A stretch of 39,635 nucleotides of DNA from a virus. The stretch is taken from the IMG/VR virus record IMGVR_UViG_3300045988_045810, positions 1-39,635 of that record, one strand, 5' to 3'. Below, piece after piece: positions 118-16,091 of this stretch. Position 1 is the stretch's first letter. Every line of letters starts with the position of its first letter. The notes below the pieces were generated by a model that was not told the DNA's origin, did not search any database, and was given only the letters and a program-made list of their open reading frames with translations. Made by a program: the position numbers and the translations under genes.

Positions 118-3100
118 ATGGCTGGCGGTAGTGAGCTTGGTTCCGCGCATGTGAGCATTTTCCCGCAGATGAAGGGCTTCCGCCAGAATGTGGCCAAGGA
201 GACCGGCAAGGCCGTCTCCGACATGAAAAACTCCTTCACGAAGGGTTTCAATGGCGCGCAGAAGGGCAAGCAGATCGGCAGCGCCTTCAAAAGCGGTTTC
301 AACAGTGGTGCGGCCGAGCTGAATTCCGAAGCCCTGAAGTCCTTTAAAAAGGACGTGGCGCAAGCCTCGCAGAAGAATACGGACGCCTTGCTGAAATTCA
401 AGGCGGCTGGCGTGCAGGTGCAGGCCGCGCAGGAGAAGCTGAACGCGGCCACACAGAAATATGGTGCGGACAGCACGCAGGCTCAGGCTGCGGCCATCAA
501 ACTCGAACAAGCTCAAATCAAACAGAAGACGGCGGCTGACAATCTCAAGGCGGCGTCCGACAACCTCAAGACGGCGCAAGGACGGCTCAAGGACCTCGAA
601 ACGCAATTGGCGGCCGAATCCGACAAGTCCAAGAATGCGTTCAGCCGTATGGCTTCCGGCTTTACCTCAACGGCACAGCAGATCGTCGGTAAGATTCCAG
701 GCGTGAACGCGGCGGTGCAGAAGATCAGTTCGACGGCTGGCGAGGTCACGTCCAACATCAAAAGCAAGTTTTCGGCTGCTTGGAATGCGCTGCCGGAGGG
801 TGCGCGTAATGCTGCCGCGAAGGCCGGCAGCGCCTTGCATTCTGGCTTGAGCAAAGCGTCCGGCTTCGCGTCGAAGGCCGTGTCCGGCATCGGCAAGGCC
901 GCGAAGGGCATGGCCACCGTCGTGTCCGGCGCCGCTGCCGCCGCTGGCGGATATCTGGTGAATTTCGGCAAGCAGGCCGTGGATGCGGCCCTCAAGGCCG
1001 GTGAGGTGACCGCGAAATTCCAGCAGGTCGCCAAGAACAATAACTGGAGTGATGAAGAGCAGAAGTCGCTGCTCAGCCTGAATAAGACGCTTGGACAGAC
1101 CGGCGTCATATCCGGTGGCACCTTGAAGGCCGCTCAGGCACAGCTCGGCACTTTCGCGCTGACCGCCGATCAGGTCAAGACCTTGACGCCCGCTTTGGCC
1201 GACATGATCGCCAACAACAAGGGCTATAACGCGACGGCTCAGGATGGCGTGCAGATCGCGAATCTGCTCGGCAAGGTCATGACCGGCAGCGCCACGGCAC
1301 TGTCGAAATATGGCGTGACGATGACCGACGCGCAGAAGAAGGTCTTGCAGGAGGGGTCGGCGTCCGAGAAGGCCGCTATGGCAGCGCAGGTTCTGGAAGC
1401 TAATTTCGGTGGCATCAACAAGGCCCTTGCGGAGACTCCGCAGGGCAAGATGACCATACTGCAGCATGAGATCGCCGGGTTGAAGACTTCGGTCGGCAAT
1501 GATCTCATCGCGGCGTTCGGCGGGGTCGGCGGCGCGGTCATCAAGATGGTGCAGGCCGTCGAACCGCTCATCACCGCGTTTTTTGATAAGGTGGCGTCGC
1601 TGGCCGAGAAGATCGGTCCACCCTTGGAAAAGGTGTTCGGTGCTGTCGCTGACAAGATTGGCAAGCTTGATTTCAGTGGCTTTGCCAAGAGTCTTGGCTC
1701 ACTGTCCGGGCCTATCGCGGCTGTGACCGGCTTGCTGGGTGCGGCTGGTCTTGGCGGCGCTTTGAGCGGATTGAGTGGCGTGCCGATCATCGGCAGCATG
1801 TTTGGCAGCTTGGGCAAAGTGCTCGGTGGTCTTGGTGGTCCTATCACTTTGGTGATTGGCGCTCTGGCGGGATTGATTGCCACGAGCCCACAGCTCCGCA
1901 GCGAATTCGGCACGATGCTCAAGAATGTCTTCGTCAGCTTGCAGCAGGCATTCCAAATGCTTCAGCCGTCAATTCAGACGCTGATGAAGGCTTTCAATCA
2001 GTTGTCTCAGGCTCTGATTCCGGTGCTTGCCCAAATCATTCCGCTTCTGACGCCGATAATCTCGACGCTGATAGGAGCTATGGTTCCGGCCATTCAAGGC
2101 ATCTTGACCGTGGTGACCACGGTGGTGCAGGCATTGGTCCCGATTATCCAGGGACTCGCGCCAGTAGTGACCGTCGTGCTGACTGCCATCACGTCCGCGA
2201 TACAGTCGCTGACGCCGATTATTTCGCAGATCAGCAGTCTGGTTGTCAATCTGGTCTCGACTGTTGTCGTTCCATTGATTCAGCAATTGGCCCCTATCGT
2301 GACTAGTGCGTTGACTGGCATTGCCTCAGTCGTGCAGGGTCTTGCTCCGATAGTGTCGGCGGTAATTTCCGCAATCATTGGTTTCATTCAAAATACGCTT
2401 TTCCCGGCAATTCAGGTAATGACGCCTTTCATCCAAGGCGTCATTGGTTCCGTCCAGCTCATACTTCAAGGCGCGATGACATTCATTCAAGGTGTCATCA
2501 ACGTTGTCTCCAGTCTCATTTCTGGAGATTGGCGGCAGGCGTTTGAGGGATTCCAACAGATTGTCAAGGGTGCCGTGGAAACGGTGCTTGGCATTATTGG
2601 TGGCATCGGGAGCGCGATTATGGGCATCTTTTCCGGTGCTGCCACATGGCTTTTGACTGCCGGCGCGTCAATCATCGGCGGACTGATTTCCGGCATCACA
2701 AGCGCCATGAATGTCCTTGGTGGTTTTCTCGGAAGCATCAGAGGGCACATCTCCGGCTTCTTCTCCGGTGCCGGTTCTTGGCTCATCAGTGCTGGCAAGG
2801 CCATTCTTAGTGGCTTGCTGAGGGGCTTGATGTCGGCATTCGGTCCGGTCGCAAGCTTTGTGAGCGGTATCGGTGACTGGATTGTCAAGCATAAGGGTCC
2901 GCTCAGCTACGACAAGGTGATGTTGCGTCCTGCTGGTCAGGCGATCATGCAGGGCTTTGACAAGAGCCTTAAGGCTGGCTGGAAGGACGTGCAGCGCACT
3001 GTCAATGGCATGAATGCGCAGATCAATGGCGGTTTCGATGTGGATGCGTCGAAGTCGGGGCGCGCGAATGTCAGCAACGGCGGTGGTTCGACCACGTATG

Positions 3101-3189
3101 TCCAGCAGACCTTCAATTATCCGGCGATCGCTCCGACGAGCATCAGCACGCAGCAACGATTGCAGACGGCGGCAATGCCGCAATGGTGA
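118..3189 (+). CDS. Tail tape measure protein
   Basis: 1023 aa, directly after the chaperone pair. Ala/Lys/Gln coiled-coil N-terminus and a long hydrophobic Gly/Ala/Ile/Val repeat core. SD GAGGAGG lies 7 nt upstream. Confidence 0.9.
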   Translation: MAGGSELGSAHVSIFPQMKGFRQNVAKETGKAVSDMKNSFTKGFNGAQKGKQIGSAFKSGFNSGAAELNSEALKSFKKDVAQASQKNTDALLKFKAAGVQVQAAQEKLNAATQKYGADSTQAQAAAIKLEQAQIKQKTAADNLKAASDNLKTAQGRLKDLETQLAAESDKSKNAFSRMASGFTSTAQQIVGKIPGVNAAVQKISSTAGEVTSNIKSKFSAAWNALPEGARNAAAKAGSALHSGLSKASGFASKAVSGIGKAAKGMATVVSGAAAAAGGYLVNFGKQAVDAALKAGEVTAKFQQVAKNNNWSDEEQKSLLSLNKTLGQTGVISGGTLKAAQAQLGTFALTADQVKTLTPALADMIANNKGYNATAQDGVQIANLLGKVMTGSATALSKYGVTMTDAQKKVLQEGSASEKAAMAAQVLEANFGGINKALAETPQGKMTILQHEIAGLKTSVGNDLIAAFGGVGGAVIKMVQAVEPLITAFFDKVASLAEKIGPPLEKVFGAVADKIGKLDFSGFAKSLGSLSGPIAAVTGLLGAAGLGGALSGLSGVPIIGSMFGSLGKVLGGLGGPITLVIGALAGLIATSPQLRSEFGTMLKNVFVSLQQAFQMLQPSIQTLMKAFNQLSQALIPVLAQIIPLLTPIISTLIGAMVPAIQGILTVVTTVVQALVPIIQGLAPVVTVVLTAITSAIQSLTPIISQISSLVVNLVSTVVVPLIQQLAPIVTSALTGIASVVQGLAPIVSAVISAIIGFIQNTLFPAIQVMTPFIQGVIGSVQLILQGAMTFIQGVINVVSSLISGDWRQAFEGFQQIVKGAVETVLGIIGGIGSAIMGIFSGAATWLLTAGASIIGGLISGITSAMNVLGGFLGSIRGHISGFFSGAGSWLISAGKAILSGLLRGLMSAFGPVASFVSGIGDWIVKHKGPLSYDKVMLRPAGQAIMQGFDKSLKAGWKDVQRTVNGMNAQINGGFDVDASKSGRANVSNGGGSTTYVQQTFNYPAIAPTSISTQQRLQTAAMPQW

Positions 3190-3213: not shown

Positions 3214-4119
3214 ATGATTCTCACGGATTATCTCATCAATGGTCAGCAGCTGACCGGTGAGCATTCGAACCTGATAGTCGGCACCACCCATTTCACGAGC
3301 ATCAGCCCGCGCATTAATTCCGTCACGGTGAATGGTCGGAGTGGTGTGATGCTTCCTGCTGGCCCACTGGCTTTCGGCGCGCCGGAAATCACGCTGAAAT
3401 TCATCACGAATGGGCCTGATGCGGATACTCTGATGCACCGCTTCTACCGCTTGTGCCGTTTGGCTTCCAAGCTGACGCGCGTGGAGCGTGACACGGTGTC
3501 CGGTTGGACTCGGCGCATGACCGCCAGCGCGGTGTGCACGTCATGTCAGCCGGACGGTGACGAGATTCCGTGGGATGACCACCGCGCGGCCACCGCCGTC
3601 TTCCAATTGCCTGACGTTTATTGGCAGGGGGAGCAGTGGCAGGAGCGCACCTTGGACGCGACTGGCGGGCGTCTCATGGCCGGTAGTGTCGATAAGCCCA
3701 GCAACAAGGGGTATTGGACGCGCTGGGCTGGATTGCCGAACGCCTCGCCCTCGCAGCTTTTCGACACCATCCCCGGTGGCTGGCTGTCCAATGCACCACT
3801 CACCGCGCTGGCATTGCGTTTCGGTGCCGCAACCGCCGTCACGATCAGTGACCCGATAAGTGGCACGAATCTGCTGTGGGGTGGCAAACGCGACGCCTCA
3901 CGACCTTATCTTTTCGTCGATGTGGCCAATCGCAAGGCGTGGACGGCTGCCAACGCCGACGCATGGTCAGGCGGCACGGATGTGACGTCCGGCGTCGACT
4001 GGACCACCGAGCCACTGCAGGTGTGGCCCGCGATCGATTCCGGCGATTATCGCCTCGCAATCAAACAGACCGGCGGCACCGACAAGGTGGTCTGCCGGTT
4101 TTTGCAATCCTGGGAGTGA
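3214..4119 (+). CDS. Distal tail protein (Dit-like), called by position
   Basis: 301 aa, immediately after the tape measure. SD AAGGGTGG. Carries a YWTRWAGLPNASPS motif shared with the fibre. Confidence 0.55.
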   Translation: MILTDYLINGQQLTGEHSNLIVGTTHFTSISPRINSVTVNGRSGVMLPAGPLAFGAPEITLKFITNGPDADTLMHRFYRLCRLASKLTRVERDTVSGWTRRMTASAVCTSCQPDGDEIPWDDHRAATAVFQLPDVYWQGEQWQERTLDATGGRLMAGSVDKPSNKGYWTRWAGLPNASPSQLFDTIPGGWLSNAPLTALALRFGAATAVTISDPISGTNLLWGGKRDASRPYLFVDVANRKAWTAANADAWSGGTDVTSGVDWTTEPLQVWPAIDSGDYRLAIKQTGGTDKVVCRFLQSWE

Positions 4120-4122
4120 TTC

Positions 4123-7100
4123 ATGGCAAAGTCCCTTCATGCCCGTCTCGTGGCCTATCGTCCGTTCGGCGCGCGTATCGGCGTCCTTGCGGATCCGGTG
4201 AGCTTCAGCGCGTCGATGCTCCACGATGATGACGGCGCAATCAGCATTGAATATTCCATGCTTTCCGGTGACGCGCAGGCGTTCGACCGTGAGCTGACGG
4301 ACGGGCTGGAAGTGGCCGTGGAGGTGTCGGACGGCACCGGTTATAGGGAGCCGGACAATGCTCGCTATGTCATCACTGGGCGCAGCGGCAAGACGGACGA
4401 CCGTACCAAGACCGTCACCTATTCCGGCCAGTCGATCAGTTGGCTCCTGAGCAAGGCGGAGAACAACGATTCCAGCCATCTGCTCGCGGACGGTGACAAC
4501 AAGGGCAAGAGGCCCTTCTATTCGTCGAATCCGGGTGTGATTCTCAAGACCCTGTTGGACGAGAACAAGGCGCGTGGCGGCGTGGCCACCGGCCTGACGC
4601 TCGGCTTCGATACCGCGAGGGACGCGGGCGGCGAGGCATGGGCGAGGAAGTACACGCTTTACTATTCCTTGGGCACCGACCTGCAGACCATTCTCAGCTC
4701 GCTGGTCAACGGCGGCGGCTGCGACTGGCGCACCAGCGGGCGCACCTTGAAAATGTGGAACGCCGACAGCACGACATTGAGCCGTGACCTGAGCAAGAGC
4801 GTCGTGCTCCAGCTTGCTCGCGATATCAGCGAGGCGCCATTTGAGGAGTCCATCGCGGATTTGGCCAGCACCATCCTTGTCGAGGGTGACAATAATCTGC
4901 TTTTCCGCATGGATAATCCGGCCGCGCCGACACCGTGGGGCAAGTGGGAGTCCTACAGCTCGCAGGGTGGCGTGTCCGATAAGGACACTGCCCAGGCCTT
5001 TATGCAGTCCACGCTTGATGATGCGGCTCGTGTGCGTGGTCAGTACACGCGCGACTTGGTGACCGCGAATGTGGATAATCTGCCGCTCATCGACTATCGC
5101 GTCGGTGACTGGATCACCGCGCCCACCGTTTCGCACGGGGAGAAGGTGCGCGTGCAGGAAATCGACCTGAGCATGCGCCAGAATGAGGGACTATCCTGCT
5201 CAATCGCTCTGAATGATATCAAGTATGATGCCTCGGTCAGGCAGGCGAAGAAGATAAAGGGCATTACCGGTGGCGCGGCATTGGCTGGCAGTGAGAGCGG
5301 CACCACTGTCTCCACTGACCATGATCATCGCGTGCCTAAAGCGCCGCTCGGCCTTGTGGTGCAAACTGATGCGTATATCGGCAGCGACGGTTTCGCCCAC
5401 GGCTTGGCCACCGCCATGTGGTCCGCAGTGACCGAAGCCACGAATAACACGGCCATTGAGATCAGCAATTACGCCATCGAGTGGCGCAAGCATGTGGACG
5501 GTGCGCCGTGGCATGCCGCCGGCGCTACCGACAAGCTCCAGCTCGGCTTCGGCAACCTGGACTGCGGCACTCAGATCGAGGTTAGGGTACGCGCCGTGCC
5601 GACATATTCCGACAAGCTGGGTGATTGGTCGGCTGTCGTGGTGGCCACCGTCGAATCCGATACGACGCCGTGCTCAGTGCCCTCCGAGCCGACAGTCTCA
5701 TCCAAGCTAGGCGTGGTCACCGTCCACTGGGACGGCAGGACCTCCACCGGGGCGCGGATGGAGCCGGACTTCGACCATATCGAAGTAGGCGAAGGCGCTA
5801 CCGCTGCTGGAATGCGCATCATCAGCGCCTCTCAGGCCGGCCAAGGCGATTACCTCATCACCGGTCTGACCGCAGGCTCGCAGCACTCCTATGCTTTGCG
5901 TTCCGTGGACCATGCGGGCAACCGCTCCGACTGGTCTGCGATTGCCACTGTGACCGTGGCGTCCGCCGTGTCGCCTGATGAGGTCAAGCAGATTCAAAAG
6001 GATTTGGCTGACAATCAGACGGCTTTGAAGGATAATGCGGCGAAGCTGACGCAGGCGCAGAAGGACATCCAAGCCAACAAGTCTAATCTTGACGCGGCGT
6101 CCAAGTCGCTCGCCCAGGCGCAGACCGACCTGACGCAGGCCCGGAAGGATATCGCGCAGACCAAGAGCGACCTGACCGCCGCGAATGGCGAGATCAGCAC
6201 GGCGAAGGAGTCGGCGGCGCAGGCGTATGCCGAAGCACATTCGAAGAATCACACTTTCCGTGGGCCTGACGAGCCGAAGGACAATCTGATTGTCGGTGAC
6301 TTGTGGCTCAAGACGCAAAAGTATTGGACGAGGTGGCAGGGAGAGAAGAACGCCTCACCGAGCCTCTTGGCTGACTTCTACACGTACTGGCAGGGCGCGC
6401 CTAACGCCTCGCCCAGCGTGCTTGTGCCATTGTCTGATCGCGTGATTGACACGCTTGTCTGGGATGGTGCCGCTTGGAACCACATGGGCTATGCCGACGT
6501 GGAGCGCAATGCCGACGAAATCGCTCAGGCGAAGTCCGACATCGCGGATAACGCCGCGAAGACCACCGACGCGAAGAAGGCTGCTGAGAATGCCACTGCC
6601 GCAGCGAAAAACGCGCAGGGCGCGGCTGACACGGCCAATGGTGCAGCGAAGACCGCTCAGGACACCGCCAATGCTGCTACTGCTGCTGCGAAAAGTGCGA
6701 CCGCGACCGCCGGTCAGGCCAAGGATGCCGCCAATGCCGCACAGACCGCAGCCGAATCTGCGAAGAAGACCGCTGGCAATGCGGAGACGCTGGCTAACAC
6801 CGCCAACGCTTCGGCCAATGCTGCCAAGACGGACGCGGCCAATGCCAAGACCACTGCTGCCAATGCGTCGAGCGTGGCGACTCAGGCCAAGGCCACCGCC
6901 GATAGCGCGGCCCAGTCCGCCACCGATGCGGCCAATGCAGCCCAGAAGGCCAATACCGCAGCAGCTGCCGCCGCTGGCGTGGCGAACGGCAAGGCCGACG
7001 TGCTGATCCAGAGCACGGCGCCGGATACGTCGATGCGCAAGGCTTCGACCCTCTGGATTGACACCACGAATGGTGCGAACACGCCGAAAAGGTGGAATGG

Positions 7101-8991
7101 TAGTGCTTGGGTGGCTGTGACCGATAAGGCCGCGACCGACGCCGCGAACGCCGCCGTCAAGGCCAATACGGCTGCGAAGACCGCGCAGGATACGGCAGAC
7201 AAGGCCAATATTGCTGCCGCTAATGCCGCGTCTCAGGCGAATCAGGCTCAGGCCGCCGCGAAAAAGGCGCAGACCACCGCGGATGGCAAGAATCTGATCT
7301 ACCGTGGCCCCGACGAGCCGAATCATGATGGCTTGAAGCCGGGGGACATGTGGTGGCGCACGCAGAAGTATTGGACGAGGTGGAAAGGCGAGAAAAACAA
7401 CTCACCGAGCCTCTTGGCCGACTTCTACACCTACTGGCAGGGCGCTCCGAACAACAGTCCGAGCGTCTTGGTGCCCTTGTCCGATCGTGTGGTGGAAGTC
7501 CTTACGTGGGATGGTACGCGCTTCGAGCCTTTTGACCTCGTGGCGAACAACATCCTCGCGTCTGGAACCGTGGCCGCGAAGCATCTCGCCGTGGATTCCG
7601 TGACCGCCGAGAAGGTCAAGGCCAATGCCATCACGGTGGACAAGCTGGCCGCGAATTCGGTCACGACTGAAAAGCTGGTGGCTGACGCGGTGACCGCCGC
7701 GAAACTCGCCGCCAACTCGGTGCAGGCGCGAAATATCGTCGCACTGTCCATCACGTCCGACAAGATTGCCGCCAATTCCGTGACAACTGGCAAGCTCAAG
7801 GTCACGGAAGACATGACCGTGGCGCTGCTCAACGTCCACAAGATTCAAGCGGGCGACATCGCCGCCAATGCCGTGACCACTGCCGCTTTGGCTGCTGGCG
7901 CGGTAAACGCCGACAAGCTGGCCGCTAATTCGGTCAATGCGTCCAAGATTGTGACTGGTGCCATCACAGCCGACAAGCTGGCGGCAAACAGTGTGACGGC
8001 CGTCAAGATCGCGGCTGGCACCATCACGTCCGACAAGGTGGCGGCAGGCCAGTTCCGAGGCTACGTGTTCACCGGCGCCGTCTTCCAGAGCTCCGAGGCC
8101 AAGAACACCGGCATGAAGCTCAATAGCACGGCCTTGCAAATGTGGGACAGCAATCACAACCGCACCGTCTACCTGGACGGCGAGGGGAAGAGCAATGTGC
8201 TGACCGGCACGTTCCAAACCCGCACGAGCGGGCACAGGGTGCGTATCAGTCCGGATTATCAGACCTACATCATCGGCGGATCTGAGACTTTCACCGGTGA
8301 TGGCATCGAATTTCCGGCTTACAACGGGTCCACCGCCTACTTTTCGCATCCGGCCATTGCTTCTGTCATCCAGTCGAATCAGGTCGGCTCGATGGGCGAA
8401 CTGGACTTGTGGAGCGGACACGTGAGCAAGAACGACCCCGCCGCGTTCATGTCTCTCAGATCGAAGCCGCGCAAGAAAGGCGGTACCGGCAGCGGCGGCG
8501 TCACATCCAGAGTGCATGCCGTGGCGAACACGGATTACGACGAGCCGGACGAGAGCAAGAAAAGCAGCGCTTACCTCACTCTGTCCGGCGATAGCGCGAA
8601 CGGTTCGAAGTGCTGGCTCGGAGCGCAAGACGCGAACGGCGAGGTCGGAGTCGGCGCGAACATCGGCACCGGATACCTGCATCTCGGCGGCTATCTCGGC
8701 GGCATCACGAACCGTTTTACATTCCAGGCCCAGACTGCGTGGAAGGCGTGGTATCCGAATCCCGGCCAGAGCATCGCGAACGGCGCATCAATGCAAGTCA
8801 ACTGCACGCTCAGCCCGACGAAATACGGCCACTATTACGTCGTCGCGAACGCGGATTCGCAATGGGCGGGCATCATCGCGCACCCATGCAACACGGGCGG
8901 GCAGAGCGGCTTCCAACTGAAGCTTTACAACGCCGACCAGCCTTGCCCGGTCGACGTGTACGCCGAATACCTCGCCTATCTGGTCAAATGA
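4123..8991 (+). CDS. Tail-tip / host-specificity fibre protein (Tal-like N-terminus, FN3-like segment, coiled coil, repeat-rich C-terminal region)
   Basis: 1622 aa, third gene after the chaperones. FN3-like HWDG...YALRSVDHAGNRSDWS, an Ala/Asn/Thr/Lys-rich coiled coil, and a run of ANSVTxxKL-type repeats. Confidence 0.85.
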   Translation: MAKSLHARLVAYRPFGARIGVLADPVSFSASMLHDDDGAISIEYSMLSGDAQAFDRELTDGLEVAVEVSDGTGYREPDNARYVITGRSGKTDDRTKTVTYSGQSISWLLSKAENNDSSHLLADGDNKGKRPFYSSNPGVILKTLLDENKARGGVATGLTLGFDTARDAGGEAWARKYTLYYSLGTDLQTILSSLVNGGGCDWRTSGRTLKMWNADSTTLSRDLSKSVVLQLARDISEAPFEESIADLASTILVEGDNNLLFRMDNPAAPTPWGKWESYSSQGGVSDKDTAQAFMQSTLDDAARVRGQYTRDLVTANVDNLPLIDYRVGDWITAPTVSHGEKVRVQEIDLSMRQNEGLSCSIALNDIKYDASVRQAKKIKGITGGAALAGSESGTTVSTDHDHRVPKAPLGLVVQTDAYIGSDGFAHGLATAMWSAVTEATNNTAIEISNYAIEWRKHVDGAPWHAAGATDKLQLGFGNLDCGTQIEVRVRAVPTYSDKLGDWSAVVVATVESDTTPCSVPSEPTVSSKLGVVTVHWDGRTSTGARMEPDFDHIEVGEGATAAGMRIISASQAGQGDYLITGLTAGSQHSYALRSVDHAGNRSDWSAIATVTVASAVSPDEVKQIQKDLADNQTALKDNAAKLTQAQKDIQANKSNLDAASKSLAQAQTDLTQARKDIAQTKSDLTAANGEISTAKESAAQAYAEAHSKNHTFRGPDEPKDNLIVGDLWLKTQKYWTRWQGEKNASPSLLADFYTYWQGAPNASPSVLVPLSDRVIDTLVWDGAAWNHMGYADVERNADEIAQAKSDIADNAAKTTDAKKAAENATAAAKNAQGAADTANGAAKTAQDTANAATAAAKSATATAGQAKDAANAAQTAAESAKKTAGNAETLANTANASANAAKTDAANAKTTAANASSVATQAKATADSAAQSATDAANAAQKANTAAAAAAGVANGKADVLIQSTAPDTSMRKASTLWIDTTNGANTPKRWNGSAWVAVTDKAATDAANAAVKANTAAKTAQDTADKANIAAANAASQANQAQAAAKKAQTTADGKNLIYRGPDEPNHDGLKPGDMWWRTQKYWTRWKGEKNNSPSLLADFYTYWQGAPNNSPSVLVPLSDRVVEVLTWDGTRFEPFDLVANNILASGTVAAKHLAVDSVTAEKVKANAITVDKLAANSVTTEKLVADAVTAAKLAANSVQARNIVALSITSDKIAANSVTTGKLKVTEDMTVALLNVHKIQAGDIAANAVTTAALAAGAVNADKLAANSVNASKIVTGAITADKLAANSVTAVKIAAGTITSDKVAAGQFRGYVFTGAVFQSSEAKNTGMKLNSTALQMWDSNHNRTVYLDGEGKSNVLTGTFQTRTSGHRVRISPDYQTYIIGGSETFTGDGIEFPAYNGSTAYFSHPAIASVIQSNQVGSMGELDLWSGHVSKNDPAAFMSLRSKPRKKGGTGSGGVTSRVHAVANTDYDEPDESKKSSAYLTLSGDSANGSKCWLGAQDANGEVGVGANIGTGYLHLGGYLGGITNRFTFQAQTAWKAWYPNPGQSIANGASMQVNCTLSPTKYGHYYVVANADSQWAGIIAHPCNTGGQSGFQLKLYNADQPCPVDVYAEYLAYLVK
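6319..6444 (+). repeat. Intragenic duplication, copy 1 (encodes KYWTRWQGEKNASPSLLADFYTYWQGAPNASPSVLVPLSDRV)
   Basis: Aligns along its length with 7366-7491, with scattered substitutions. Confidence 0.85.
7366..7491 (+). repeat. Intragenic duplication, copy 2 (encodes KYWTRWKGEKNNSPSLLADFYTYWQGAPNNSPSVLVPLSDRV)
   Basis: Aligns with 6319-6444, in the same reading frame of the same ORF. Confidence 0.85.
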
Positions 8992-9000
8992 TTGGAGGGA

Positions 9001-9570
9001 ATGTTGTCAGCGACTTTTGAAATGGATGATAACGGATTGTGTATCATCCGCTGCGATCCGCCGGTGAACGGGTCGGACAGTTTCGTCTTCCGGCCTGAGG
9101 TGATCGCATCGTGGAAGGCGCTGCTCGGATTGGCTTCGACCCGTGAGGCGGTAGCGGCGATCATGCAGGGCAAGGAGGATACAAGCCGATACGACCATGC
9201 CACCGGCAGGGGCGTGTGGACTGGAGCGTTCGAAGCGTTGGAATCCGCTTTGACGGATTCCGCGACCGGCGTGAGCATGATGTCCGACGATGGGGAAGTG
9301 TTGAATGACCCGCTGACCGCCGCACGCAACAGGACGCGTGAGGGCATGAATCTTCCGGTCATGTCGAATGAGACCGACGCGCGGATGTGCGCCGCATTGA
9401 CTGCTGACGGTTCCGGTGTGGAAGCGTCCAGCGGCATCGATGTGGCCTGCACGCGGGATATCGACGGATTGGACGCCTTCCTTGATGACGAGTCCAGCCA
9501 AAACATGTTGGACGAATGCGAGGAACGCTTCTACGAATCGCTCATGCCAAGACAAAACCAACAGAATTAA
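9001..9570 (+). CDS. Hypothetical tail-associated protein (start uncertain: TTG 8992 or ATG 9001)
   Basis: ORF follows the fibre gene on the same strand with high GC3. The GGAGGG just upstream is very close to the ATG. Confidence 0.55.
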   Translation: MLSATFEMDDNGLCIIRCDPPVNGSDSFVFRPEVIASWKALLGLASTREAVAAIMQGKEDTSRYDHATGRGVWTGAFEALESALTDSATGVSMMSDDGEVLNDPLTAARNRTREGMNLPVMSNETDARMCAALTADGSGVEASSGIDVACTRDIDGLDAFLDDESSQNMLDECEERFYESLMPRQNQQN

Positions 9571-9581
9571 GGAGATTGATT

Positions 9582-9899
9582 ATGGCCGATGAGACCACTG
9601 AAACCACTACCGCTGATACCACTACTGCCGTGACGCCCTCTGAGCCGTCCGGTGTGCTTGATTTGCGTCCGCCGAAGGAGTCGGTGCGCGCGGAATTGTG
9701 CCGTCTCGGATTGGAGTTTTCCAGCGCTGACGGCACCGCCGAATCGTGGCGCGACTACCAGCGTGGCGTGCTGGCCACGTTCGACGATACGGGCACGTCC
9801 GTGACGTTGACGGACGTGAAGACGAATCTCGGACGCACCCTCACACTCGACGAGCTTAAGGCCGTGACTCGTATCGACACGATGACCGCCGCCGACTAA
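9582..9899 (+). CDS. Hypothetical protein
   Basis: ATG preceded by AAGGAG (9568-9573). Thr-rich N-terminus. Last gene before a terminator. Confidence 0.6.
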   Translation: MADETTETTTADTTTAVTPSEPSGVLDLRPPKESVRAELCRLGLEFSSADGTAESWRDYQRGVLATFDDTGTSVTLTDVKTNLGRTLTLDELKAVTRIDTMTAAD

Positions 9900-9924
9900 C
9901 CCCGCTTTTCACCATTTTTTTCAA

Positions 9925-9958
9925 CCCCTGCAATCCACACGGATTGTGGGGGTTTCGC
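9925..9958 (+). terminator. Rho-independent terminator closing the tail operon
   Basis: CCCCTGCAATCC-acac-GGATTGTGGGGG forms a 12-bp stem (two G-U pairs) followed by TTTCGCATT. Confidence 0.6.
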
Positions 9959-9976: not shown

Positions 9977-10147
9977 TTGACTCAGATTCCAGCCGACGCG
10001 AACGAGGTCATCGACTCTCTTTCCGTGCAAATCGGCACTCTCACGAAGCAGATCGCAATCCTGACCAGTCAGCTCAATGCGGCCATGAAATTGGTTCCGG
10101 CCGACGTGCTCGAAAGCGTGAAGGGGGATACGCATGCAGAGGATTAA
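9977..10147 (+). CDS. Small coiled-coil protein heading the paralogue unit (TTG start)
   Basis: AAGGAG 7 nt upstream of the TTG. Heptad-like IDSLSVQIGTLTKQIAILTSQLNAA. Overlaps the next start. Confidence 0.45.
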   Translation: MTQIPADANEVIDSLSVQIGTLTKQIAILTSQLNAAMKLVPADVLESVKGDTHAED

Positions 10148-10658
10148 CTGGTTCCCCGACCCGCTCATCACCGGAAAACTCTCCGCGGAAATCAACAATG
10201 GCGCAGCAAAAGCTGTTGTGGTCGCCGACAATAAGAATTGGCTCAAAGTCACCAGCACCGCGACCGGCGATAATTTCGGACAATTCTCACTGTCGGACGG
10301 CCTCATCCCACCGGCTGGCACGTATCACGTGCACGCCAGGGTATACGCGCAGAAGGCCGCCGCCAATTTCATCGTCTACAGCAACGTCAACTCCTCGTGG
10401 AAGCAGTTGCTGAACAAGCCGGTCGCCGACGGGCAAACCCTCACGGTGGACTCCGAGATCACGATTCCGGAAGGATGCCAGCGTCTCCTCGTCAGGATGC
10501 AATTGGGGAGGGAGGTCGGCTTGATCGGCATGATGAGCGAAATCCTCATCGAATCGGCCGACACTTACGATAAAGCCGTGGGGGGGGGCTTCCGGGCTTC
10601 TTCTCGGGGGACACGATGCCAAAGGAGTGAGCTTCGTCGGGCGGGTGATGTCCGATGA
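10134..10658 (+). CDS. Receptor-binding-like paralogue 1, read with G9. One extra G would end it at 10630 with the conserved FFSGDTMPKE C-terminus.
   Basis: N-terminal INWFPDP resembles the NLCTSPS / ITNYASSP starts of paralogues 2 and 3. The frame changes at the G9 tract. Confidence 0.7.
   Translation: MQRINWFPDPLITGKLSAEINNGAAKAVVVADNKNWLKVTSTATGDNFGQFSLSDGLIPPAGTYHVHARVYAQKAAANFIVYSNVNSSWKQLLNKPVADGQTLTVDSEITIPEGCQRLLVRMQLGREVGLIGMMSEILIESADTYDKAVGGGFRASSRGTRCQRSELRRAGDVR
10580..10588 (+). repeat. Homopolymeric G9 tract inside paralogue 1
   Basis: Counted directly: g at 10580 plus eight g at 10581-10588. Confidence 0.95.
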
Positions 10659-11023
10659 TGGTCACGAACCTATGCACGAGCCCATCCTCGACCATCACCC
10701 TGAAAGCCGACAAGTGGGTGAATATCACGACCCTTCCGAGCGTGAATGGGGCGACATATCAGATCAGCGTCGAGGTGAACGTCACAGGCGGCACTATCTC
10801 GATAATCGGAGCGGATGGCGACATCAACGCAAGACAACGTGTCAGCTACAAGATGATCATCAACAATTCCCATCCGATATCAATGAGTTATCACGTCAAG
10901 TCAGGCAGTCCGACCGTCACAGTGACGAACATGCTCATCTGCACGTGGGACGAATACCAGGCGAACAAGACCCTGCTCGACAGCATCGAATATTTCGACG
11001 GGGATACGATGCCACGCGCCTAA
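10655..11023 (+). CDS. Receptor-binding-like paralogue 2 (ends YFDGDTMPRA)
   Basis: 122 aa with an NLCTSPS start motif. The C-terminal motif is shared with paralogues 1 and 3. Confidence 0.7.
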   Translation: MMVTNLCTSPSSTITLKADKWVNITTLPSVNGATYQISVEVNVTGGTISIIGADGDINARQRVSYKMIINNSHPISMSYHVKSGSPTVTVTNMLICTWDEYQANKTLLDSIEYFDGDTMPRA

Positions 11024-11042
11024 TCCTTATGGGGGTGGTGGC

Positions 11043-11417
11043 ATGAGTGTCATCACGAATTATGCGTCCAGCCCGCTTGCCGTTTGCACCGTCAATGGTG
11101 CTGGCCGTAACAATTTCCCAGACTGGAATGTCACTAATGATGCGCCGGCCGAGCACGTCGTGAGCGCAAGAATCCAGCTTGTGTCCGGCACTGGCACGAT
11201 CAGATTCGGATGGGACAGTGCTCACACGCTTGACAAGACGGGACGTCTGACAGCTTATCCGTCATCGAACATTTTCCCTCAAATCACGGTCATCACCACC
11301 GGTGATGCCGTCTGGAAAGTCAGCCACGTTATTGTCGCCTCACAAGCGGAATACAGTCAGCTGACATCAAAATACAGACTTGGTTATTTCGATGGCGACA
11401 CCATGCCAAAAGATTAA
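11043..11417 (+). CDS. Receptor-binding-like paralogue 3 (ends YFDGDTMPKD)
   Basis: 124 aa with the same N- and C-terminal motif architecture. Confidence 0.7.
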   Translation: MSVITNYASSPLAVCTVNGAGRNNFPDWNVTNDAPAEHVVSARIQLVSGTGTIRFGWDSAHTLDKTGRLTAYPSSNIFPQITVITTGDAVWKVSHVIVASQAEYSQLTSKYRLGYFDGDTMPKD

Positions 11418-11438: not shown

Positions 11439-11828
11439 GTGTTTCAAACGTTTTTAGCGGGTTTTGGTGGTGTGGGTGGCGCGTGCGCGGTAATCACACT
11501 ATGTCTCAAAATCTGGCCGGGGGCGCTCGAATCATTGGCTACTGGGCTGTATGCCCACGTCAATCCCGAGCGCTTGCCGTATAACAGCGTGCTTTCCCAG
11601 CATTTCGCCAAAACACGAATGCTCGGAGAACGTACCGAAAAATTCGACGAGCGCATGGACGAGTTGTGCCGTGACACCATCAAAAACACGATCATCAGCC
11701 TGATCTACGGCGACCAGTCACACGACCATTCCGAGGCCGTCCGATACGAGCTGGCTAAGCTCGAAAAACTCGACGCGCAATGCTGGATCATCTCAGCAGC
11801 CGAAAAATACTTGGAGGACCGGCAATGA
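11439..11828 (+). CDS. Membrane-anchored protein (possible holin-like or lysis accessory), GTG start
   Basis: AAGGAG 7 nt upstream. One N-terminal TM segment (FLAGFGGVGGACAVITLCL) and a helical C-terminal part. Confidence 0.55.
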   Translation: MFQTFLAGFGGVGGACAVITLCLKIWPGALESLATGLYAHVNPERLPYNSVLSQHFAKTRMLGERTEKFDERMDELCRDTIKNTIISLIYGDQSHDHSEAVRYELAKLEKLDAQCWIISAAEKYLEDRQ

Positions 11829-11996: not shown

Positions 11997-12116
11997 ATGG
12001 ACGAAGTGACCATGACGCCGGAAATGACACCGCAGGGCGACAGTCTGCCGCCCATTGACATCCCGGTCGTGTCCGAAACGGATGCGGCCAAGGCTGTCGA
12101 AGGATTGGAGGACTGA
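11997..12116 (+). CDS. 39-aa acidic protein upstream of the lysin
   Basis: GGAAGGAGG SD. MDEVTMTPEMTPQGDSLPPIDIPVVSETDAAKAVEGLED. The stop lies 1 nt before the lysin ATG. Confidence 0.45.
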   Translation: MDEVTMTPEMTPQGDSLPPIDIPVVSETDAAKAVEGLED

Positions 12117-12117
12117 C

Positions 12118-12912
12118 ATGGCAAGCGTCAGCGCTCTCATCAATCGTATGCGTTACTGGTGCGCAGTCGCCAATCTCGGCTACAGCCAGTCCGACCGCTG
12201 GAACTTCAACCCATCGGGGGGTAATTGCGATTGTTCCAGCCTGGTAATCCACTGCCTGCGCGAGGCGGGCTTCGACACCGGTTCGGCCACCTACACCGGC
12301 AACTTGTCCGGTGAGCTGACCAAGCGCGGATGGACGCGACTCCCAGCGAATGGTAATCCGCAGCCGGGCGACATCCTGCTCAACGACGTGCACCACGTGG
12401 CCGTCTACCTTGGCGGCGGCAAGCTCGCGCAGGCGTCCATCTCCGAGCGTGGCACGGCCTACGGCAAGGCCGGGGACCAGACCGGCCGCGAAACCAACAT
12501 CAGGGGCTACTACAGCTACCCGTGGAACTGCTACCTCCGCTACGGCGGCGGCAACACCTCTTCGGCATCCACCGGCGCCCTAGCCGTGGACGGCAACGTC
12601 GGCCCCGCCACGGTACGCCGCTGGCAGCAGGTGATGGGCACCGCGGTGGATGGCATCATCAGCGGCCAGCAGGTGCCTGACGGCAGGACTTACGCGCGTC
12701 CCGCCATCGATTCGAGCGTGGTCCGCTACGGCGCTGGCGGCAGTGATCTGATCCGTGCCGTGCAACGTCGCCTGGGCTGCGGCACTGATGGTCTGCTTGG
12801 CCCCGCCACCATTCGCGCCATCCAAGCGCACTACGGCCTGGCTCAGGACGCGAGCTTCGGCCCCGCGACCGCACGCGCCTTGCAGACGGCACTCAATCAA
12901 AACCGATTCTAA
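12118..12912 (+). CDS. Endolysin: NlpC/P60- or CHAP-type cysteine peptidase with C-terminal peptidoglycan-binding repeats
   Basis: The N-terminal NCDCSSLV...HHVAVY Cys/His pattern is typical of these peptidases. The C-terminus repeats G(P)AT...LQ motifs as in PG_binding_1. Confidence 0.8.
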   Translation: MASVSALINRMRYWCAVANLGYSQSDRWNFNPSGGNCDCSSLVIHCLREAGFDTGSATYTGNLSGELTKRGWTRLPANGNPQPGDILLNDVHHVAVYLGGGKLAQASISERGTAYGKAGDQTGRETNIRGYYSYPWNCYLRYGGGNTSSASTGALAVDGNVGPATVRRWQQVMGTAVDGIISGQQVPDGRTYARPAIDSSVVRYGAGGSDLIRAVQRRLGCGTDGLLGPATIRAIQAHYGLAQDASFGPATARALQTALNQNRF

Positions 12913-13355: not shown

Positions 13356-14180
13356 ATGGGCATCAGACAGCAGACGATTGACGATTACGGCGCGTTCGTG
13401 GACAAATTCAAACCGAAGAAGACCACGGATGACTGCTATACCCCCCCCGCAGTGTATGAGACGATAAAGGACTGGGCATGCCGTGAGTTTGGCATCGACC
13501 CCAGCAAGGTGGTGCGACCGTTCTATCCGGGCGGCGATTACGAGCGGTTCGACTATTCGGGCGGTGCGGTGGTTGTGGATAATCCGCCGTTCAGCATCCT
13601 GTCGAAGATCTGCACGTTCTATCGGACGGAGCAAATTCCGTTCTTCCTGTTCGCGCCGTATCTCACGATCTTCTCCAGCACGTCGCGCAATGGGGCGCAC
13701 ATGATCGTCACGAATTCGACCATCGAATATGCTAACGGCGCGCAGGTCAACACCAGCTTCGTGACGAGTTTCGGTGATGACCTGATCCGCACCGCGCCGG
13801 ACTTGGCCAACGCGATCGACGAGACCGTGAAGCGCGTCAGGAAAGAGCAATGCAGGCATCCGCCGAAATACTCGTATCCGCGTGAACTGCTTACCGTGAG
13901 CAGGCTCGGGAAGATTAGCAAGCAGGTCGAGTTCCGCGTCAAGGCTTCAGACGTTGCGTTCACGAGTGCTCTCGACTCGCAGAAGGCCGTGAAGAAGGCC
14001 ATCTACGGCGGCGGCTATCTCCTGAGCGAAGCCAAGGCCGCGGAACTGAAGGCCGCAGAACTAAAGGCCGCAGAACTAAAGGCCGCAGAACTAAAGGCCG
14101 CAGAAGACGTGACAGTCTGGCCTCTCTCCGAAACCGAAAGGCGGATCATCGAAAACCTCGCGCAAGAATCGCGCGGTTGA
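13356..14180 (+). CDS. Orphan N6-adenine DNA methyltransferase (phage type, DNPPF motif IV)
   Basis: TTDDCYTPP near the N-terminus and VVVDNPPFS. No adjacent restriction gene. Sits between two terminators. Confidence 0.7.
   Translation: MGIRQQTIDDYGAFVDKFKPKKTTDDCYTPPAVYETIKDWACREFGIDPSKVVRPFYPGGDYERFDYSGGAVVVDNPPFSILSKICTFYRTEQIPFFLFAPYLTIFSSTSRNGAHMIVTNSTIEYANGAQVNTSFVTSFGDDLIRTAPDLANAIDETVKRVRKEQCRHPPKYSYPRELLTVSRLGKISKQVEFRVKASDVAFTSALDSQKAVKKAIYGGGYLLSEAKAAELKAAELKAAELKAAELKAAEDVTVWPLSETERRIIENLAQESRG
13441..13448 (+). repeat. Homopolymeric C8 tract in methyltransferase codons 29-31
   Basis: Counted directly. Read as ACC CCC CCC (T P P). Confidence 0.95.
14037..14105 (+). repeat. 15-bp coding tandem repeat, about 4.6 copies (AAELK)n
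   Basis: GCCGCGGAACTGAAG, then GCCGCAGAACTAAAG three times, then GCCGCAGAA. Confidence 0.95.
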
Positions 14181-14921: not shown

Positions 14922-16091
14922 ATGGCCTACACAATCCGCCAATACCAGACGAAAGCCGGAAAAAGATACGAAGTCAGATACCGCAAGCCGGACGGCAGCA
15001 CGACCGGCAAACGTGGCTTCCGCCGCAAGATGGACGCGGATGCGTGGGGCGCAGCCAATGTGACCACCGCGAAAAGCGTCGGAGCCTACATCGACCCACA
15101 GGCCGGAAGAAGACTCGTGGAGGACTTCTGGGAGCCGTGGCTGGCCGCCAAGAAGACCAAGGCGAAGCCAAGCTACATCAAGTCGCTGGAAGACGCTTGG
15201 CGCGTGCATGTGGAGCCGCAGTGGGGTATGAGGGAGATGCAGTCAATCACGCGCGACGAAGTGCAGCGGTGGGTCACCGATCTGGCAGGACGACGCAGTG
15301 CGTCGGTGACGATTCGCGCCGAGAATCTGCTTCGCAGCCTCATGGAGAGGGCAAAGGCCGATCGGTGCATCCACGACAATCCGTGCGATGGAATCGAGCT
15401 GCCGCGCAAGCAGGTGCGGAAGCATGTCTATCTCTCGGCTGACGAATTGTCTCGTGTGGCGATGCAGTGCGGGTGGCGTGAGCCGATCGTGCTGACCTTG
15501 GGCTTGTGCGGAATGGGGTGGAGTGCGCTTGTGGAGCTCCGTGTCGAGGATGATGACCTGCAACGGTGCAGGCTGCATATATATAGGAGCATCACGCGGC
15601 TTTCCAGCCGACTGGTGGAGACGGACCCGAAGACCCATGATGGGCGTTCGGTGATGTTCCCCCTGGTGTTGCGTCCACTGCTCGCCAGGCAATGCGAGGG
15701 GCGCAGGCCGTCCGATTTCCTTTTCACCGCTCCCGGCGAACCTTTGGACGAGCCGATGGGAAACGGCTGGAATCCGACGCGAAGCGATGGATGGTTCGCG
15801 GTGGCTCTTCGTCGCGCGGGCGTGGACCGTGGCCACATGACGATTCATGATCTGCGGCATACGGCCGCTAGTCTCATGGTGCAGTCCGGCGCTAACGTCA
15901 AGACCGTGCAAAGGCAGCTGGGGCACAAGAGCGCCGCCATGACATTGGACGTTTACGCCGATCTCTTCGATGATGATCTGGACGAGTTGTCGGAGAGGAT
16001 GGGTGGTTTGCTTTTTTCGCAGAATGTGGGCAAAATGTGGGCAAACGTGACGCAAGGTGTCGATGGAACCGTTGAAACGGTTTGTGTCTGA
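14922..16091 (+). CDS. int: Tyrosine integrase
   Basis: 389 aa. C-terminal HDLRHTAASLMVQSGANVKTVQRQLGHKSAAMTLDVYADLF contains the R/H-x-x-R/Y catalytic pattern. attP lies immediately downstream. Confidence 0.9.
   Translation: MAYTIRQYQTKAGKRYEVRYRKPDGSTTGKRGFRRKMDADAWGAANVTTAKSVGAYIDPQAGRRLVEDFWEPWLAAKKTKAKPSYIKSLEDAWRVHVEPQWGMREMQSITRDEVQRWVTDLAGRRSASVTIRAENLLRSLMERAKADRCIHDNPCDGIELPRKQVRKHVYLSADELSRVAMQCGWREPIVLTLGLCGMGWSALVELRVEDDDLQRCRLHIYRSITRLSSRLVETDPKTHDGRSVMFPLVLRPLLARQCEGRRPSDFLFTAPGEPLDEPMGNGWNPTRSDGWFAVALRRAGVDRGHMTIHDLRHTAASLMVQSGANVKTVQRQLGHKSAAMTLDVYADLFDDDLDELSERMGGLLFSQNVGKMWANVTQGVDGTVETVCV
16026..16043 (+). repeat. 18-bp direct repeat GTGGGCAAAATGTGGGCA, left copy (candidate arm-type integrase site)
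   Basis: Identical to 16236-16253. Contains an internal TGTGGGCA doublet. Confidence 0.8.

Follow-up and report, generated by a model that had tools for sequence, protein, structure and literature searches.

Does a run of G residues close to the 3' end of a small phage gene switch the C-terminus of the encoded protein, or is it a base-calling error, a recoding site or a sign of decay? This question is raised by IMG/VR virus record IMGVR_UViG_3300045988_045810 (positions 1 to 39,635; the whole stretch of 39,635 nucleotides (nt) is referred to below as the window), in which a unit of small genes sits between the tail genes and the lysis genes and three of these, here P1, P2 and P3, follow each other in tandem. 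A preliminary description, made from the letters of the window, had regarded the three genes as receptor-binding-like paralogues and proposed that a tract of nine G (G9) in the first separates an ON form of its product from an OFF or alternative form. Comparison with related loci suggests that P1 is probably a slipped-strand poly-G contingency locus, by which a tail-associated adhesin would gain or lose a peptide that probably serves for docking.

G Tract and Reading Frames of P1

The G9 homopolymer is located at 10580..10588 on the plus strand, inside P1 (10134..10658, plus strand), which as sequenced encodes a product of 174 amino acids (aa) in the OFF (-1 frame) form, with a C-terminus reading ...KAVGGGFRASSRGTRCQRSELRRAGDVR* and the tail ...VGGGFRASSRGTRCQRSELRRAGDVR. 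Both the tract and the end of P1 at 10658 were found where they had been described, and the TGA of P1 (10656-10658) overlaps the ATG of P2 (10655), as had also been noted. Direct reading of the frame after addition of one G (GTG GGG GGG GGG CTT CCG GGC TTC TTC TCG GGG GAC ACG ATG CCA AAG GAG TGA) gives ...GGGLPGFFSGDTMPKE, that is VGGGLPGFFSGDTMPKE*, with the stop codon at 10628-10630, and this end matches the C-termini of P2 (10655..11023, plus strand, 122 aa) and P3 (11043..11417, plus strand, 124 aa), which read YFDGDTMPRA and YFDGDTMPKD, respectively. The earlier observation that one more G restores the family C-terminus and moves the stop to 10630 was therefore reproduced, together with the ends given for P2 and P3. 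The conserved C-terminal coding segment (10589..10630, plus strand; LPGFFSGDTMPKE plus stop) is read in the window's context only at G7 or G10, and the 15-nt motif encoding GDTMP is present three times at a spacing of 393/394 nt.

The tract is the sole G/C run of at least nine in the window. At least one G9 was found in 15 of 100 shuffles of the window composition, and a single G9 is not rare; a lone tract being unremarkable by composition, the argument rests on its conservation in relatives.

Tract Length in Related Loci

Tract lengths were read from public viral, metagenome and Bifidobacterium adolescentis assemblies (IMG/VR, ENA, Logan and NCBI isolates). An exact search with the 24 nt 5' of the tract retrieved 49 IMG/VR contigs and one genome contig, and the run lengths at these 50 loci with identical upstream sequence were G7 (two loci), G8 (four), G9 (27), G10 (12), G11 (four) and G12 (one). 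A profile-guided scan added 80 further loci with P1 bodies down to 35% identity. An uninterrupted run of G7 to G12 at the same codon position was detected in 88 of 90 distinct haplotypes, including those with bodies only 35-60% identical, and the lengths of these 88 pure runs were G7 (10 haplotypes), G8 (eight), G9 (40), G10 (25), G11 (four) and G12 (one); the only two haplotypes with an interrupted run are L001 (G6CGG) and L128. Regarding the two findings that had been named as contrary to switching, the first, a lack of the homopolymer in relatives, does not apply to these haplotypes, and the second, a single length giving the in-frame form, is at odds with the relatives' assemblies, in which lengths from G7 to G12 and all three frames are represented.

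Which lengths are in frame depends on the codon preceding the run: with GTT, found in some alleles, G9 is in frame, and with GTG, found in the window and further alleles, G10 or G7. Among 67 unique loci with open reading frames (ORFs) read from their starts, 30 (45%) are in frame, 26 have the frame of the window and 11 (16%) have the third frame. The in-frame lengths 7, 9/10 and 12/13 all occur, and the linker encoded by the tract therefore tolerates length variation.

Tract length varies between loci that are otherwise identical or nearly so. In six of eight groups sharing an identical 446-nt P1 body the tract lengths differ, and flanks of 2400 nt with 0 and 2 mismatches accompany tracts of G9 vs G8 and G9 vs G10. 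Similarly, in a collection of 5.8 billion proteins the 165-aa and 174-177-aa forms share clusters at 90% identity, with approximately 225 in-frame and approximately 241 -1-frame contigs tallied by hand among the members listed, and NCBI isolates of B. adolescentis carry both forms (WP_368100458.1, 165 aa; WP_368101240.1, 176 aa). Third-frame products of approximately 305 aa also exist in protein collections, because the third frame is open across P2 (cf. ORF 10627..11046). The automated annotation thus splits the family into proteins of 165, approximately 175 and approximately 305 aa, and it would be wrong to take the frameshifted forms for pseudogenes or for separate proteins. Three features of a simple-sequence-repeat contingency locus are present: a homopolymer within the reading frame, length polymorphism far beyond point divergence and a selected segment whose frame is opened or lost as the length changes.

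Miscalls are classically found at homopolymers of 9-10 G, and the G9 of the window might be a consensus error, the real genome having G10 and encoding an intact 165-aa P1 that is not switched in this phage. That G9 is the most frequent call for GTT and GTG alleles alike would suit this explanation, as would an exact look-up of the window's 174-aa product, which returned no record elsewhere. However, six lengths from G7 to G12 are found in independent assemblies produced by several pipelines, forms in and out of frame are about equally frequent, and no length class of the kind that frameshifts produce is seen in the adjacent P2, an internal control taken from the same kinds of assemblies: P2 has 1215 homologues, and among the 120 listed 119 are of 121-122 aa and one of 107 aa, with nothing resembling the 165/175 split. 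A consensus error could account for the G9 of this one window but would leave the population-level polymorphism intact, and we regard this explanation as quite unlikely. Four of the 49 viral contigs (L028, which is contig IMGVR_UViG_3300045988_033152, L027, L021 and L006) end 0-57 nt past the tract, one inside it, against approximately 0.2 expected; this is only a hint, which suggests either mixed lengths breaking de Bruijn assembly or poor read quality at the run.

Selected Frame and Purity of the Tract

In the 33 nt 3' of the tract, variable sites are distributed 1:1:7 over the codon positions of the FFSGDTMP frame, and LPGFF[ST]GDTMP followed by a stop at the same place is kept in 14 of 15 haplotypes. 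Individual downstream haplotypes co-occur with up to six tract lengths, and the peptide encoded in the -1 frame is freely variable (FRASSRGTRC, FRASSPATRC and others). Judged from these substitution patterns, purifying selection acts on the FFSGDTMP frame at every tract length. The 1:1:7 pattern identifies the motif frame as the one that is selected, which makes the Arg-rich tail the OFF product and not an alternative functional end. Of the earlier description of the tract as separating an ON from an OFF or alternative form, the ON/OFF part was thus borne out, and the notion of a selected alternative form was abandoned in view of the codon-position pattern and the 14 of 15 haplotypes that keep the motif.

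Regarding the tract itself, GGG is the rarest Gly codon of the genome (7.4% of Gly codons), and the three Gly codons nevertheless remain GGG in nearly all haplotypes, with neighbouring codons synonymously diverged. The retention of GGG suggests selection for the run itself, a signal that is statistically not strong.

Fold and Family of P1

The structure of P1 was modelled with AlphaFold2 on P0001, a 98%-identical in-frame homologue, using 76 homologues. The model (predicted local distance difference test score, pLDDT, 84.7; predicted template modelling score, pTM, 0.82) consists of a beta-sandwich over residues ~5-141 and a short helix at 142-146, and residues 148-165, which comprise the Gly linker and the motif, have a pLDDT <50 and lie outside the fold. 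Foldseek searches against the PDB gave matches to carbohydrate-binding modules (CBM) of families CBM22/4/16/61 with a probability of 1.0 and template modelling (TM) scores of 0.5-0.6, the best being 4xup, 3p6b, 2zew and 1gui at E-values of 1e-6 to 1e-7, and searches against viral models gave modules of tail fibre, minor tail, BppU-type and host-specificity proteins. P1 is therefore predicted to be a free-standing CBM-type beta-sandwich with a putative role in sugar binding. CBM4/9/16/22/61 domains are found in phage tail proteins and the model of P1 superimposes on the same beta-sandwich; those domains are embedded in large tail proteins, whereas P1 is free-standing, of approximately 165 aa and below the Pfam thresholds.

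At the level of sequence, the comparison of P1 with Pfam gave only a sub-threshold match to CarboxypepD_reg (17.1 bits vs a cut-off of 32.3), one homologue (P0037) has a precomputed PF02018 hit, and a search of PDB sequences with the P1 profile returned only a chance-level match. The family is narrow, with 50 representative clusters matching the profile among 1.84 billion proteins, and the named members from other searches belong to B. adolescentis or to uncultured Caudoviricetes. An N-terminal N-x-x-x-x-P strand motif is typical of CBM modules, and the motif of this type that had been noted at the N-termini was recovered with N5 and P10 invariant in six aligned sequences.

The characterization of the genes as receptor-binding-like is supported for P1 by the predicted fold and by the tail-fibre-type viral matches. 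A jelly-roll or CBM fold had been anticipated for all three proteins; the model of P1 agrees with this, and that of P2 is too poor for fold assignment (pLDDT 40).

Proposed Mechanism and Alternative Explanations

According to the reading considered probable here, slipped-strand mispairing during DNA replication would add G residues to the tract or remove them. At ON lengths (G7 or G10 in the window's context, G9 for GTT alleles) the 165-aa P1 would be made, comprising the CBM-type sandwich, a flexible Gly linker and the C-terminal LPGFF(S/T)GDTMPxx. At other lengths the fold would still be made and the conserved peptide lost, the G9 of the window giving a 24-residue unselected Arg-rich tail and G8 or G11 a read-through product of approximately 305 aa across P2 in the wrong frame. 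The C-terminal peptide may dock P1 on the tail tip or baseplate, a role proposed because the peptide is common to three dissimilar proteins, lies outside the fold and is encoded by genes adjoining the tail module; the docking idea fits the model of P1, in which the motif is predicted to form part of a flexible tail of low confidence. Tract length would then decide whether the adhesin is displayed, which may yield progeny with mixed adsorption properties.

Several observations weigh against this reading. G9 is the modal length in both codon contexts, being in frame in GTT alleles (8/12) and out of frame in GTG alleles (23/51); the mode tracks run length and not frame, which fits mutation pressure and would also fit a length bias of sequencing or assembly. 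The proportion of in-frame loci exceeds one third only slightly, the loci not being independent of each other. Only five of the 11 downstream third positions are polymorphic, and the purity of the three Gly codons is statistically weak when taken alone. P1, P2 and P3 have no significant match in Pfam, PHROGs or NCBIfam, and the genes adjoin the lysis cassette closely and are separated from the tail genes by a terminator-like hairpin, a virion role thus being presumed from fold and position. The occurrence of the same mode in both contexts is compatible with lengths set by a mutational equilibrium, selection being weak as long as the phage remains a prophage.

Some of these points would also favour a neutral explanation, by which the tract was inherited together with a recombining constant 3' module, indel repair by the host is poor, P1 is dispensable and the frameshifts represent decay. 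The small excess of ON forms and a mode that follows length are what such instability would give; in addition, a second G/C run of the window varies among relatives (C7-C9, discussed below), so that long G/C runs may simply be unstable, and the L033 haplotype has a stop inside the motif. However, purifying selection maintains the motif frame in haplotypes of every tract length, which would be hard to keep if the motif were usually unread, the tract is pure in nearly every haplotype despite the rarity of GGG and the synonymous divergence of adjacent codons, and each of the in-frame length classes is represented. Neutral instability is accordingly given little probability as an account of the locus.

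An out-of-frame state might also be the intended one, the C-terminus being reached from G9 at a fixed ratio by programmed -1 ribosomal frameshifting on G_GGG_GGG or by slippage of RNA polymerase. In the zero frame, GT G_GGG_GGG GGC is a formally perfect X_XXY_YYZ heptamer, a -1 slip on which yields exactly GGGLPGFFSGDTMPKE, and G9 is the commonest state of the window's allele group. The -1 configuration is not conserved, however, the 45% of loci that are in frame needing no shift, the 16% in the third frame needing the opposite one and GTT alleles being mostly in frame at G9. Furthermore, there is no stimulatory structure 5-9 nt downstream; in the predicted fold the G run itself pairs with the CU-rich CUUCUUCUC (z = -1.85), no better than in shuffles, and the next hairpin begins approximately 39 nt 3' of the tract. 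Known transcriptional slippage prefers A/T runs; on any G9 it would be possible incidentally, yet it is unneeded for the data. Fixed-ratio recoding is thus improbable, and obligatory -1 frameshifting was rejected as the main mechanism given the unconserved two-frame arrangement and the missing stimulatory structure. A shufflon of the Rin/Min type can be dismissed, as the locus has no rix site (TTCCCTAACCC) with at most one mismatch, no invertase (no recombinase family matched among the ORFs between the tail and lysis genes) and no meaningful inverted repeats, those present being short and at chance level; the suggestion that no invertase is involved holds in this respect.

The slipped-strand contingency reading might be extended, tentatively and with more doubt than confidence, to a set of plug-in adhesins, in which three and sometimes more modules compete through one shared peptide for a common dock at the tail tip, the tract determines whether the P1 head is loaded, bursts contain mixed adhesins, the third slot is exchanged by recombination and can have a tract of its own (L094), and the P1 tract acts with the second variable tract, in a possible methyltransferase, as a small set of contingency loci. 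If true, such a combination of plug-in adhesins and contingency loci would be a strategy undescribed for phages of gut Actinobacteria.

Comparison With Known Variable Host-Recognition Systems

Receptor-binding proteins of Fletchervirus, which infects Campylobacter, are described as containing poly-G tracts of 7-11 G (Sorensen et al. 2021, Cell Rep 35:109214, according to bioRxiv 10.1101/2025.10.21.683753; also cited in PMC12823448). The likeness to P1 lies in a G run within a gene of the host-recognition module whose length shifts the frame, in that case giving phenotypically mixed progeny. In contrast, the phage of the window is temperate and siphovirus-like, with a Gram-positive, high-GC gut commensal as host, and the tract of P1 is situated 13 codons from the end, so that only a short peptide is toggled and the folded domain is always made. 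No relation in sequence between P1 and the Fletchervirus proteins was found (no PHROG match), and P1 is a putative virion receptor-binding protein in view of its predicted CBM fold, its tail-fibre-like structural neighbours and its position. Thus, a poly-G adhesin switch is known as a kind from Campylobacter phages and no report of one was found for bifidobacterial phages; the twist of the P1 locus is that only the 13-residue C-terminal peptide is switched.

Contingency loci of T2/T4 and the general concept for phages have been presented by Gomez, Barrick and Waters (bioRxiv 10.1101/2025.10.21.683753). As at those loci, where polymerase slippage at homopolymers causes reversible frameshifts, length polymorphism here far exceeds point divergence; in the same work repeats of at least 6 bp were under-represented in tail-fibre genes of coliphages, whereas the tract of P1 is conserved in a family of tail-module genes.

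For bifidobacteria, the Rin shufflon of Bifidobacterium breve and Bifidobacterium longum prophages relies on a tyrosine invertase and on rix sites of 11 bp, by which alternative C-terminal cassettes are joined to a constant N-terminus (Mavrich et al., 2018, PMC6109161). Both systems belong to temperate bifidobacterial phages and have small tandem genes 3' of the tail genes and a varied receptor-binding end, with diversified host recognition as the presumed purpose, whereas the window has three complete, co-oriented genes and a proposed homopolymer switch without invertase, rix sites or inverted repeats. Homopolymer switching is not mentioned in that paper (neither poly-G nor frameshifts) or in the bifidobacterial prophage survey PMC8705816, and a switch of this kind would join the invertase shufflon already known in Bifidobacterium phages. 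In PMC6109161, permissive hosts could not be found for the bifidoprophages that were induced.

Hundreds of public assemblies contain the locus, in ON and OFF forms of about equal frequency, and it offers an inexpensively testable handle on variation of host recognition in these temperate phages. B. adolescentis is among the commonest bifidobacteria of the adult gut, and to our knowledge its phages are almost uncharacterised.

P2, P3 and Exchange of the Third Slot

The three genes had been called paralogues, and profile comparison of P1, P2, P3 and a 130-aa type described below retained only part of this claim. With the ends included, E-values range from 1e-6 to 1e-9, the similarity of P1 being confined to its last 35-45 residues, and the trimmed gene bodies have no detectable similarity (E 0.02-0.6). 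Full-length paralogy was therefore dropped, the body-only comparison not being significant, and the three genes appear to share end modules around diverged or unrelated cores.

P2 is the constant member of the set. The third slot is occupied by the 130-aa type in most relatives, by the 124-aa type of the window in few, and by a tract-bearing P1-like type in L094, which has two tract-bearing genes, with G10 at 4448-4457 in the first gene and G10 at 5377-5386 in the third slot. The context of the latter tract is ...GCGCTC G10 TATCCTCGC (the 'ALGGGYPRFF' type), which is also found in L054 and L120. In the genome of Bifidobacterium ruminantium DSM 6489 (L055), a G9 stands in the standard CTTCC ('LPGFF') context. 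A mosaic junction coincides with the tract when the window (10580 onward) is compared with faecal contig MT836445 (L001, 9349 onward): similarity between the two amounts to 92% in the part that begins with the tract and to 89% in the 56-aa gene preceding P1, and the P1 body of MT836445 is unrelated to that of the window (142 aa, starting MQRINLWPNPKFDP), its interrupted tract being in frame.

A small conserved hairpin is present at 10636-10658 of the window, with the Shine-Dalgarno-like GGGTGAT of P2 in its loop and a 3' arm ending just before the P2 ATG. It has seven pairs, among which only one-sided and no compensatory changes were seen. Ribosomes translating P1 in the OFF frames would pass through this hairpin and in the ON frame would terminate 6 nt upstream of its 5' arm, so that tract length might also influence P2 translation.

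Locus Layout and Genome Context

The whole window represents a circularly closed genome of a temperate phage of approximately 39.5 kb, with an exact terminal direct overlap of 99 nt (1-99/39537-39635). The phage is siphovirus-like, and the named homologues point to B. adolescentis as the host group. Among phage genome records, the only related one is the unannotated faecal contig MT836445, and the match to Bifidobacterium phage PMBT6 is limited to 50 nt (window 11451-11500) in a putative holin ORF.

The tail module comprises genes for the tape measure protein (118..3189), a Dit-like protein (3214..4119) and a 1622-aa tail protein (4123..8991), followed by two small ORFs of 192 aa (8992..9570) and 127 aa (9516..9899). 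A terminator-like hairpin is located 3' of the last ORF of the tail operon (9923..9954, plus strand). The terminator that had been placed there was upheld insofar as this hairpin has a 14-bp stem and a folding energy of -23.1 kcal/mol (z = -3.74), none of 200 shuffles folding equally well; its U-tail is weak, and it is absent from the list of a consensus terminator scan. The 56-aa ORF that follows (9977..10147, plus strand; helical or coiled-coil by eye) overlaps the start of P1 by 14 nt, and its synteny is kept, a 56-aa gene being called at the equivalent position of 13 independent contigs from Logan, ENA and NCBI. Neither this ORF nor the two small ORFs upstream had a significant match in Pfam, PHROG or NCBIfam.

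Directly 3' of P3, a 129-aa ORF with a hydrophobic N-terminus (11439..11828, plus strand) probably encodes a holin, and 12 of these 13 contigs have a corresponding 129-aa gene 3' of the three small ones; the remaining contig breaks off within it. The endolysin (12055..12912) matches ELLD, NlpC/P60, Amidase_5 and PG_binding_1, and the integrase (14922..16091) is the only recombinase found. A role of the three small genes in the lysis module, as cell-wall-binding subunits of the endolysin, was considered and rejected. Relatives L134-L145 have the same order of small genes and encode, approximately 3.3-3.5 kb into each locus, either ELLD/amidase/PG_binding_1 endolysins, as in the window, or GH25 + CW_7 + LysM endolysins, a difference that reflects module swapping in the lysis cassette; the type of endolysin is swapped while the three genes stay, and a specific partnership is therefore disfavoured.

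A Second Variable Tract

A second homopolymer that varies in length is located 2.9 kb 3' of the G tract, where a C8 run (13441..13448, plus strand) lies near the start of a 274-aa ORF (13356..14180). In the window the run is in frame (TAC ACC CCC CCC GCA), and related loci, some of which are duplicates, have C7 (eight loci), C8 (14) or C9 (eight). A length of C7 or C9 would truncate the product after approximately 30 residues. The 274-aa ORF matches only phrog_21498, of unknown function, and gave no match in searches of Pfam, NCBIfam and PDB. It contains a DNPPF motif, seen by eye, which resembles motif IV of adenine methyltransferases and makes a methyltransferase possible.

In Bordetella phage BPP-1, a poly-G tract is described in a methylase gene (Liu et al. 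2004, as cited in bioRxiv 10.1101/2025.10.21.683753). The likeness consists in a homopolymer, here C8, that varies among relatives within an ORF carrying the DNPPF motif; the difference is that the assignment as a methyltransferase here depends on a motif seen by eye, the PHROG match being the only one. Near the C-terminus of the same ORF, a 15-nt unit repeated 4.8 times (14034-14105) encodes (AELKA)n, potentially another length-variable repeat.

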